From a plasmid: a DNA stretch of 64,000 bases. Shown here piece after piece: positions 7,004 through 8,018 of this stretch. The position numbers and the translations under genes were made by a program. The DNA is taken from the sequence record NZ_LR134454.1, one strand, 5' to 3'. Below the pieces are notes generated by a model. The model had not been told where the DNA came from. It made no database searches and saw nothing but the letters and a program-made list of their open reading frames with translations. Each line of letters starts with the position of its first letter. Positions within the stretch are counted from its first letter, which is position 1.

Positions 7004-7067
7004 ACATCTTTCGAAGCGTTCTGTGACGGAACCCGCTCGGTTCCTCGCAGAACGCTTCGAAAGATGT
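7004..7067. repeat. 64-bp palindrome A1: ACATCTTTCGAAGCGTTCTG-N24-CAGAACGCTTCGAAAGATGT
   Basis: Perfect 20-bp arms. The loop is itself semi-palindromic (GGAACC..GGTTCC). The right arm contains the ATG (7064) of the DUF559 gene. Confidence 0.85.
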
Positions 7068-7954
7068 CGGTGGGGGATCCGATCTCGGCGCTGGTGCGTC
7101 CAATGGGTATGGGGGTCCCCACACGAGAGTTGGTTCCGTACGCGACGCCGTACGAGATCCGTGCTCGATACCAGCAGGTGATCCGCGGTGTGCGCATGCC
7201 CGCGGGTCGGCCGGTGACGTTCCGCGACCTGATCGACGCGGCTCTGCTGCTGTATCCCGACGCCGTGTTCTGCGGGTGGACCGCCGCGGCCCTGCACGGC
7301 GTCGCGTACTGCGCCGACAGGCCGATCGAGGTCTGGTTTCCGCTGCCCCGACGACGGCAGGGGATCGTCATCCGCGGCGGCGCCATGCCCGATGCGGACG
7401 TGATCGTCGTCGACGGCCTCCGGCTCACGACGGGCGCCCGCACGTTCGTCGACATCGCCCGTTTCACCGACGGTGACGATGCCGTCGTCGGCGCGGATCA
7501 GTGCCTGCGGGTGCGCGACGACGGACGGTCCGTCACGACGGTGCAGGACGTCGCCGACTACCTCGACGCCCACGCGCACCTGCACCGGTCGCGTCGAGTG
7601 CGCGCCGTGCTCGCCGAGGCCGACGGAGGAGCCGAATCGCCACCCGAAACGCATCTGCGACTGCTACTCCATCGGGCCGGTCTCACCATGTTCGCCACGC
7701 AGATCGTCATCGACGGTGGCCGCTACCGCCTCGACCTCGGCGCGGACGAGTACAAGGTCGCCGTCGAATACGACGGCCGCGATCACGCCGATCCAGGGCA
7801 ACAGAGTCTGGACGCGACTCGTCGCAACACTCTGCGGCACGACTACGGCTGGGAGGTCATCGTGGTCACCGCGAAGATCCTGTCCGAGGGACGTGACGAG
7901 ATGCTCCGCCAGGTGCGGTCCGCCCTGGATGAGCGTGCACACGCGGCGGCATGA
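7064..7954 (+). CDS. DUF559 (Vsr-like PD-(D/E)xK fold) protein with AbiEi-type N-terminal domain
   Basis: C-terminus (YKVAVEYDGRDHADPGQQSLDATRRNTLRHDYGWEVIVVTAKIL) is typical DUF559. The start is placed at the first ATG after the HAD stop. The track ORF 6944.. would overlap HAD. Confidence 0.7.
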   Translation: MSVGDPISALVRPMGMGVPTRELVPYATPYEIRARYQQVIRGVRMPAGRPVTFRDLIDAALLLYPDAVFCGWTAAALHGVAYCADRPIEVWFPLPRRRQGIVIRGGAMPDADVIVVDGLRLTTGARTFVDIARFTDGDDAVVGADQCLRVRDDGRSVTTVQDVADYLDAHAHLHRSRRVRAVLAEADGGAESPPETHLRLLLHRAGLTMFATQIVIDGGRYRLDLGADEYKVAVEYDGRDHADPGQQSLDATRRNTLRHDYGWEVIVVTAKILSEGRDEMLRQVRSALDERAHAAA

Positions 7955-8018
7955 ACATCTTTCGAAGCGTTCTGCGATGAACCGGGCACGATTCGTCGCA
8001 GAACGCTTCGAAAGATGT
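7955..8018. repeat. 64-bp palindrome A2, identical arms to A1 with the loop related by inversion
   Basis: Begins 1 nt after the DUF559 stop (TGA 7952-7954). Arms are 20/20 identical to A1. Loop versus revcomp of A1 loop is 17/24. Confidence 0.85.

Follow-up and report, generated by a model that had tools for sequence, protein, structure and literature searches.

The 64,000-nucleotide stretch of DNA analysed here (sequence record NZ_LR134454.1, hereafter the window) belongs to the chromosome of a Tsukamurella strain (assembly GCA_900104775.1) and contains two genes for proteins with a DUF559 nuclease domain, each bracketed by its own matched pair of long palindromes. In the first of these units, cassette 1, the promoter-proximal palindrome is found at 7004-7067 and the distal palindrome at 7955-8018, where an earlier interpretation made from the letters alone (the sequence-only reading) had placed them. 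Both have perfect 20-nt arms, the stem of the proximal copy reaches approximately 23-29 bp, and a hairpin of -49 kcal/mol is predicted for either copy. Between them lies a plus-strand gene (7109-7954) that would encode 281 amino acids from a conserved ATG at 7109 (alternative ATG at 7103), with an AbiEi-like N-terminal region followed by a DUF559/Vsr-like nuclease domain. The TGA stop codon occupies 7952-7954, and the distal palindrome begins directly after it, at 7955. Cassette 1 is preceded by a HAD hydrolase gene (6076-6981) and followed by a gene for a SpoIID/LGFP protein (8181-10325).

The window holds exactly four occurrences of the 20-nt arm, ACATCTTTCGAAGCGTTCTG, two in each palindrome, and no others even when up to three mismatches are allowed (0 occurrences expected from 100 shuffles). 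Among all inverted-repeat pairs of the window with copies no more than 3 kb apart, the pairs of cassettes 1 and 2 take the top two places, and the earlier view that the palindromes of cassette 1 are not two independent terminators is supported. Their loops had been described as related by inversion. The count given for this (17 of 24 positions) is correct, but the direct comparison scores 15 of 24, so close that the orientation is not significant, and in the T. sputi orthologue the loops are clearly direct (21 of 24, versus 10 of 24 when inverted).

A second unit with the same architecture and a different palindrome pair had been proposed at 57815-58850, and was confirmed as cassette 2. Its promoter-proximal palindrome (58810-58850) lies 3 nt from the stop codon of a LysE-family gene and exhibits mirrored changes in orthologues. 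It is followed on the minus strand by a SigM-type promoter (58767-58796; GGAACCG-N12-GTGCGTCCAAT, an exact match) and by the gene (57878-58768, minus strand), which encodes 296 amino acids from the first ATG at 58768 and has a conserved second ATG at 58762. The product is a paralogue, 26% identical to the cassette 1 protein, and is predicted to have a full AbiEi fold and a Vsr/EDxHD-like nuclease domain. The distal palindrome (57815-57855) is truly inverted relative to the proximal copy (38 of 41 positions, versus 32 of 41 in direct orientation). Because 41 nt separate the proximal palindrome from the first ATG (58768), and 22 nt the stop codon from the distal one, the bracket is close but not exact.

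Homologous loci were picked by protein similarity alone, and their flanks were not viewed beforehand. All 13 loci, namely the two window cassettes and 11 further ones, representing three actinobacterial orders, have the gene enclosed by a matched repeat pair. Bracketing is in this sample a feature of the DUF559 family, and orthologues devoid of palindromes, which the sequence-only reading had named as the finding that would speak against it, were not among the 13. The further loci are L079 (T. tyrosinosolvens, between TetR and nitroreductase genes), L081 (T. paurometabola, between PNPOx and Fe-ADH), L082 (Tsukamurella, between purC and purB), the cassette 2 orthologues L091 and L221, and loci from Mycolicibacterium sp. 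CH28 (L095), M. boenickei (L096), Gordonia (L098), a metagenome contig (L166), Pseudonocardia (L219) and Dactylosporangium (L220). The repeats are spaced 929-1065 bp apart, with lengths of 41-87 nt and identities of 77-98% in most pairs; in L081 the gapless alignment between the copies covers only 21 nt. Twelve of the 13 pairs are strong palindromes, the weakly palindromic pair being that of L166 with a stem of 8 bp, and each paralogue has its own repeat sequence.

As a control, 402 open reading frames (ORFs) of 200-450 aa from the same DNA were scored identically. They had a median score of 9, with the 95th percentile at 12, whereas nine of 11 cassettes scored 25-43. The only high scorers among the 402 were DUF559 genes, their antisense ORFs, and tandem paralogues; the latter (Gordonia acyltransferases, and mycolyltransferase-like genes near 42-43 kb of the window) were rejected as brackets, and none of the approximately 390 true control ORFs had a palindromic bracket. 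The false flanking-repeat signal in the window stems from tandem secreted esterase/mycolyltransferase-like paralogues at approximately 41000-43412, which share C-terminal coding sequence. In the literature searched on DUF559, on AbiEi with Vsr, on MTES_1575 and on related subjects no description of this palindrome-bracketed arrangement was found, and it seems not to have been described before.

One way to account for hairpin-bounded units is a transposase or recombinase from elsewhere in the genome that recognises the hairpin ends, such as an IS200/IS605 TnpA, a tyrosine transposase associated with repetitive extragenic palindromes (REPs), known as RAYT, or a Xer-like enzyme, with the DUF559 gene as a passenger. 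All that speaks for it is a broad similarity of the cassettes to elements with hairpin ends and to RAYT genes flanked by REPs. On the other side, every paralogue has a different palindrome, so that no single trans-acting enzyme could serve all; no dispersed palindrome copies are present in 273 kb of Tsukamurella DNA; the cargo is always one protein family, with no such bracket among the controls; and the two ends of a cassette are identical, not distinct left and right ends. We give this explanation hardly any credence. The sequence-only reading had suggested IS200/IS605-like ends mobilised in trans, and this suggestion was dropped, since in addition the cassette encodes no HUH protein: its only ORF is the AbiEi plus Vsr-like one, its ends are identical and other copies are missing from the window and from 273 kb of related DNA, although a TnpA elsewhere in the genome was not searched for. 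An integron gene cassette was rejected because, by inspection, the arms lack the RYYYAAC/GTTRRRY core sites of attC and because the cassettes are solitary among housekeeping genes. A REP/RAYT system was rejected as well, the protein fold not being HUH and the palindromes being confined to the cassette. Neither the window nor the 273 kb of Tsukamurella DNA contains extra palindrome copies. REP-like dispersal was rejected on this ground, and the result speaks against the ubiquitous REP-like family that had been put forward earlier as a possible refutation of the cassette idea.

In the encoded proteins, only the C-terminal DUF559 domain is recognised by Pfam. PADLOC matched approximately the first 180 residues of both window proteins to AbiEi (for cassette 2, E = 3e-18 over residues 14-176), and an AlphaFold2 model of the cassette 2 protein had a predicted local distance difference test (pLDDT) value of 95.7. 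When the PDB was searched with Foldseek, residues 1-195 matched the S. agalactiae AbiEi antitoxin 6Y8Q over approximately 199 columns with a target-normalised template modelling score (TM-score) of 0.60-0.65. For the last approximately 100 aa the homing endonuclease I-Bth0305I ranked first, with its catalytic domain (3R3P; TM-score 0.81, root mean square deviation 2.3 Å), and the next matches of the nuclease domain were NGO0050 (3HRL) and Vsr (1CW0). In the model, a whole AbiEi fold is thus joined in one polypeptide to a Vsr-like nuclease domain. In a set of 40 diverse sequences D228, E239, H246 and D255 never vary, and at least 90% of the sequences have D241; no conserved stretch of 7-10 residues exists across the protein family. 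At least 785 family clusters were found at E ≤ 1e-10 among 8,000 candidates scored in a database clustered at 90% identity. Family members are usually annotated as 'DUF559 domain-containing' or 'AbiEi family antitoxin domain-containing'.

Between the proximal palindrome and the gene, all 10 aligned Mycobacteriales cassettes and L221 exhibit the same order: palindrome, 1-13 nt, GGA(A/T)CC, 16-17 nt, CGTC(C/T)A, and start codon. In cassette 1 the element lies at 7075-7104 on the plus strand and consists of a -35 box GGATCCG, a 12-nt spacer, and GTGCGTCCAAT with the -10 box CGTC, as expected for an extracytoplasmic function (ECF) promoter of SigM type. With up to three mismatches allowed, the promoter pattern has two matches in the window, each directly before a DUF559 gene. 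The -35 element of mycobacterial SigM is GGAACCG (PMC13491425). The motif GGAWCCG-N12-GYGCGTCCAA has at least 120 exact matches in metagenomes and thus marks a widespread ECF promoter; at the matching loci (L099-L178) mostly unrelated genes start just downstream, and one of the 80 is a DUF559 gene. Two of five small proteins tested behind the metagenome motif are EspC/WXG100-type ESX substrates, and small genes of this kind often follow the motif directly, in line with a SigM regulon and in support of the promoter reading. From the promoter sequence we infer that the cassettes depend on SigM. The DUF559 nucleases may, as a side observation, be unrecognised members of a regulon tied to ESX-4 and conjugal mating in mycobacteria. 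A SigM-type promoter was not found in the Pseudonocardia (L219) and Dactylosporangium (L220) cassettes. There, TGTCCACA is present between palindrome and gene, twice in L219 (2415-2455) and once in L220 (2440-2450), and may be a different regulatory signal.

The promoter also bears on where translation of cassette 1 begins. Public gene calls use the ATG at 7064 (296 aa), which is located inside the hairpin arm, and on this basis the sequence-only reading had described the gene (7064-7954) as exactly bracketed. The downstream half of that description holds, and the ATG at 7064 does lie in the right arm, but the real start is probably elsewhere. The ATG at 7064 is TTG in one orthologue, the stretch 7068-7093 has evolved unlike coding sequence, and the ATG at 7103 is ATT in two orthologues, whereas the ATG at 7109 is invariant and located where a leaderless transcript would begin. 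For these reasons the start codon is probably at 7109, the annotated start at 7064 probably wrong and the protein probably 281 aa long. Similar over-extension is likely elsewhere in the family, and as a practical matter its annotated start codons are probably wrong. With the hairpin upstream of the -35 element of a leaderless promoter, the earlier idea of translational silencing by a sequestered start codon fails.

The palindromes themselves are strongly constrained. At locus 1 the arms of four species are 93% identical in the 5' copy and 99% identical in the 3' copy, as compared with 79% for the coding sequence, 60% for third codon positions, 64-70% for the loops, and approximately 30% for the flanks outside. 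In the 5' copy of T. sputi an arm change is mirrored (TTTCGAAG/CTTCGAAA to TTTTCAAG/CTTGAAAA), and a comparison of three lineages at locus 2 reveals three variable arm positions, each altered on both arms and in step in the two copies. It is the sequence of the arms that is conserved, and not their pairing alone. Structure at the RNA level was considered and rejected: sense and antisense energies are similar, G-U counts of 28 versus 18 are unconvincing, and formal covariation counts, from few sequences, are not above shuffled controls. Hairpin energies in the family range from -21 to -50 kcal/mol, and no T-run follows the hairpins even though they are very stable and adjoin stop codons. Actinobacterial terminators often lack a T-run. 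A terminator role of the palindromes is likely, but it cannot account for identical pairs.

An alternative source of sequence constraint is binding by the encoded protein. The palindromes consist of 20-26 bp arms separated by 1-30 bp and measure 41-82 bp in total, and in the Mycobacteriales cassettes 1-13 nt lie between the proximal copy and the -35 element downstream of it. The site bound by AbiEi is made of two inverted repeats of 23 bp with 3 bp between them, and M. tuberculosis Rv2827c binds pairs of 23-bp repeats 13 bp apart, beside its promoter (PMC7319586). Given the homology to AbiEi and the conservation of the arm sequences, the palindromes are probably binding sites of the protein encoded between them.

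On whether the palindromes belong to the cassette or to the insertion site, there is evidence on both sides. Cassette 1, L081 and L079 are at different loci and their proteins are 53-62% identical; their alignment runs through both palindromes and ends there, with a common palindrome motif (G)ATCTT...CTGCG...CGCAG...AAAG. The Dactylosporangium cassette (33-35% protein identity) begins with GATCTTGCAG, resembling GATCTTTTGCAG of L081. Since related cassettes at different loci share palindrome motifs, the sequences favour palindromes that travel with the gene.

The opposite view is that host terminator hairpins were duplicated on insertion of the gene ('insertion with long target duplication'), in which case the palindromes would belong to the locus. 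In most loci a palindrome does lie within 0-7 nt of the neighbour's stop codon, most repeat pairs are direct, one relative has a single palindrome copy, and restriction-modification genes provide a precedent (PMC2853133). The proteins of L095 and L096, moreover, are 66% identical and have unrelated palindromes. On the other hand, the family-1 cassettes from four loci and two orders share palindrome motifs in register, only one of 11 gene-less Tsukamurella species holds the locus 1 palindrome and the empty allele of locus 2 holds none, the two purB-adjacent cassettes described below have no common palindrome, and arm length and geometry fit AbiEi operators. We consider duplication of a host terminator hairpin decidedly unlikely, in spite of the counter-example of L095 and L096. 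Of the earlier proposal that a homing-type nuclease targets and duplicates terminator hairpins, the terminator duplication is unsupported, and the homing nuclease is a reasonable model because the best structural match of the nuclease domain is a homing endonuclease.

In its distribution among relatives, cassette 1 behaves as a discrete unit. At the HAD-SpoIID site it is present in five of 16 Tsukamurella species (the source strain, T. ocularis S00175, T. spumae, T. sputi, and a T. paurometabola metagenome-assembled genome, MAG) and absent from 10, in agreement with the earlier claim that it interrupts a compact HAD-SpoIID interval. In the remaining species, T. conjunctivitidis, one palindrome is found without a gene; this is the sole instance of the single hairpin between HAD and SpoIID that had been predicted for empty sites. 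The allele is exactly one 951-bp unit shorter than filled alleles, and its loop agrees with that of either T. sputi copy at 22/24 positions in direct orientation. A tree made from the flanks places T. conjunctivitidis and T. sputi, which has the cassette, as sister species. A deletion between direct repeats is the simplest reading, the alternative being an unfilled target site. Upstream of the SpoIID gene, a phased array of GTGAC/ATGT repeats (window 8060-8125) is kept in 16/16 Tsukamurella loci, with or without the cassette, and homology to empty alleles resumes at 8060; it is for this reason part of the SpoIID promoter region and outside the cassette. A recent import of the cassette 1 region was looked for by comparison with T. 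hominis and discarded, none being visible and the flanks being uniformly 92-94% identical.

Cassette 2 is inverted in T. tyrosinosolvens and in a T. pseudospumae-type genome, with identical junctions, which are the stop codon of the LysE-family gene and a point 7 nt from GTACGCGC. In a metagenome strain with an identical LysE protein the cassette is missing and 228 nt of unrelated DNA are present instead. Decay is also seen, in three pseudogenes (L006, L014 and L166): the T. ocularis copy of cassette 1 has an in-frame stop codon, the T. paurometabola MAG copy has lost approximately 82 bp (repeat spacing 869 versus 951 bp), and L166 is frameshifted. Finally, one site has been occupied independently by two cassettes of different subfamilies. 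L082 (3918-3979), the protein of which is 45% identical to that of cassette 1, and L166 (8184-8224), approximately 50% identical to cassette 2 relatives, adjoin the purB stop codon within 0-5 nt, in opposite orientations and in different taxa.

Cassette-free alleles contain other elements. A REPIN-like palindrome, YATGCG-N5-CGCATR, is usually found as doublets approximately 58-60 nt apart (L005 5906/5966; L008 3489/3549; L009 5986/6045 and 6385/6445; L011 5912; L017 6919/6977; L087 3693/3751). In the 273 kb of Tsukamurella DNA its exact form occurs only in the intergenic sites of DUF559 cassettes and only in cassette-free alleles, and it is absent from the 64-kb window, so that the two palindromic elements look like alternative occupants of the same sites. 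The HAD-SpoIID spacer of T. strandjordii (L017 5853-6750) holds a low-GC insert of approximately 0.9 kb with a minus-strand ORF of 202 aa, again marking this spacer as an insertion hot spot. In T. ocularis CIP111612T the spacer is 797 bp long and has a run of GCTGCC/GCCGCT hexamers (L009 6060-6120); the two inverted REPIN-like doublets flank approximately 340 nt of non-coding DNA, which may be a decayed small element.

The reading we favour, with a probability of roughly 0.45, is that of a selfish, homing-endonuclease-like cassette. The order of its parts would be a palindrome, an ECF (SigM-type) leaderless promoter, the AbiEi-Vsr/EDxHD nuclease gene and a second copy of the palindrome. The AbiEi module would bind the arms as a dimer, with two half-sites of approximately 20-26 bp, one for each subunit, and at the promoter-proximal palindrome this binding would autoregulate transcription; both copies also lie where terminators would be. 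The fused nuclease would thereby be delivered to the palindromes and act there. Breaks at the palindromes could lead to deletion and inversion and could keep the four arms evolving in concert, with recombination or repair between the copies deleting the cassette to a single palindrome or flipping it. If a similar palindrome elsewhere were broken, its repair could copy the cassette into it, with the arms as homology, resulting in a homing-like spread that is possibly timed by SigM. Because the same site is present at both ends the cassette would behave as a discrete selfish unit, and because the arms are self-complementary either orientation would be possible, with a full palindrome regenerated on each side. 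The proposal of the sequence-only reading that DUF559 genes travel as hairpin-bounded selfish cassettes is thus borne out in its architecture and unit-like behaviour, while the mobility is something we infer.

Several observations weigh against a selfish cassette. Near-identical copies at two different loci were not seen, and recent transposition is undocumented; most empty alleles hold unrelated replacement sequence and are not clean empty sites; and the divergence of orthologues roughly tracks the species tree, which fits old vertical inheritance with losses. Full-length homologues are lacking on 72,556 plasmids and 50,697 phages. The recognition sites are intact at both ends of filled alleles, unlike those of classical homing endonuclease genes, where insertion normally destroys the site. 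The covariation counts and the unrelated palindromes of L095 and L096, mentioned above, belong here too, and so does the published paper on the M. abscessus SigM regulon, in which 'nuclease', 'DUF559' and 'AbiE' do not occur; because it names no nuclease, SigM dependence of the cassettes stays at the level of a suggestion.

A part of these observations would suit a resident host gene with unusual regulation. The 5' palindrome would then be an AbiEi-type operator and the 3' palindrome a second operator combined with a terminator (serving e.g. looping, or parking of the nuclease), the protein would be a fused, self-restrained nuclease of toxin-antitoxin, defence or repair type, and the polymorphisms would be passive by-products of recombination between the repeats. 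The AbiEi fold, the operator-like palindrome geometry and, in the Mycobacteriales cassettes, a gap of 1-13 nt between the proximal palindrome and the -35 element argue for such a gene, as do the stability of the loci across species with a divergence close to the species tree, and the absence from plasmids and phages. In addition, codon positions 1, 2 and 3 of locus 1 orthologues are identical at 88, 90 and 60%, which shows purifying selection on the protein. A resident gene leaves unexplained why the 3' copy is more constrained than the 5' copy (99% versus 93%), why two unrelated cassettes occupy the same purB-proximal site, why the homology of paralogues ends exactly at the palindromes, and why pseudogenes and losses are frequent. 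Furthermore, a gene for the AbiEii toxin (a DUF1814 nucleotidyltransferase) is not adjacent in any locus, the neighbours being housekeeping genes. On balance we regard a resident gene as possible but rather doubtful.

The selfish, homing-like reading can be extended to a new class of one-gene mobile DNA, the product of which would cut its own palindrome while the arms template copying into similar palindromes. In Mycobacteriales, the SigM-type promoter would couple homing to cell-cell contact and distributive conjugal transfer, and homing would, if this is true, be timed to when a cassette-free homologous allele shares the cell. This extension is speculative, and we think it unlikely, though with a real chance of being correct. 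AbiEi-DUF559 fusions are a very large family with no assigned function, for which the bracket supplies a testable logic, namely that of a site-specific nuclease with a gene that is delimited by the enzyme's own sites. If selfish, the cassettes would represent a new mode of persistence and spread for one-gene elements of high-GC Gram-positive chromosomes, and a source of local deletion, inversion and allele replacement beside housekeeping genes. In a previous study 'DUF559 domain-containing protein' was 14-fold enriched among predicted targets of programmed inversion, in a table without comment (PMC9881135), and the inverted repeats of the cassettes may be the cause of this enrichment.

Among known systems, EDxHD homing endonucleases are similar in several respects. 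I-Bth0305I has an N-terminal helix-turn-helix (HTH) region and a C-terminal Vsr-like domain, and acts as a homodimer with a footprint of approximately 60 bp on a pseudopalindromic target (PMC3239194). The cassette proteins likewise combine an HTH DNA-binding region with a Vsr-like catalytic domain for which 3R3P is the best structural match, the palindromes of 41-82 bp are comparable to the footprint of approximately 60 bp, and both exhibit presence/absence polymorphism at a fixed locus. In contrast to these endonucleases, the cassette gene is not in an intron or intein, its DNA-binding part is AbiEi and not NUMOD, its putative site is intact and doubled and brackets the gene instead of being split by the insertion, and the family is chromosomal and actinobacterial, not phage-borne.

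With AbiE type IV toxin-antitoxin systems such as Rv2827c the cassettes share the full AbiEi fold of the N-terminal 195 aa and the geometry of the proximal palindrome, a predicted operator that resembles the 23-bp inverted repeats with 3- or 13-bp gaps of AbiEi and Rv2827c. They differ in having a fused nuclease domain in place of AbiEii (DUF1814), a second operator-like palindrome at the 3' end of the gene, and an ECF-type leaderless promoter.

A third likeness concerns restriction-modification genes, for which Nobusato and coworkers reportedly described, in 2000, insertion with long target duplication. Genes of this kind were 'inserted with long target duplication' also in the study of Furuta 2010 (PMC2853133). 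Those genes and the cassettes alike are nuclease units without a transposase or integrase, flanked by direct repeats of more than 30 bp, with a single copy where the unit is missing. The cassette repeats are, however, palindromic, constant in one protein family and with motifs shared between loci, and they look like binding sites of the cassette's own protein, not like an arbitrary target. RAYT genes with their REPINs, for their part, are single genes flanked by palindromic repeats thought to be recognised by the product, as are the cassettes; in the cassettes the protein has a PD-(D/E)XK fold and not HUH, the palindromes are not dispersed, and each paralogue has its own pair. The DUF559 cassettes thus combine known kinds of elements, being at once a free-standing homing-endonuclease-like gene, an AbiEi-regulated module, and a nuclease gene with long flanking repeats.

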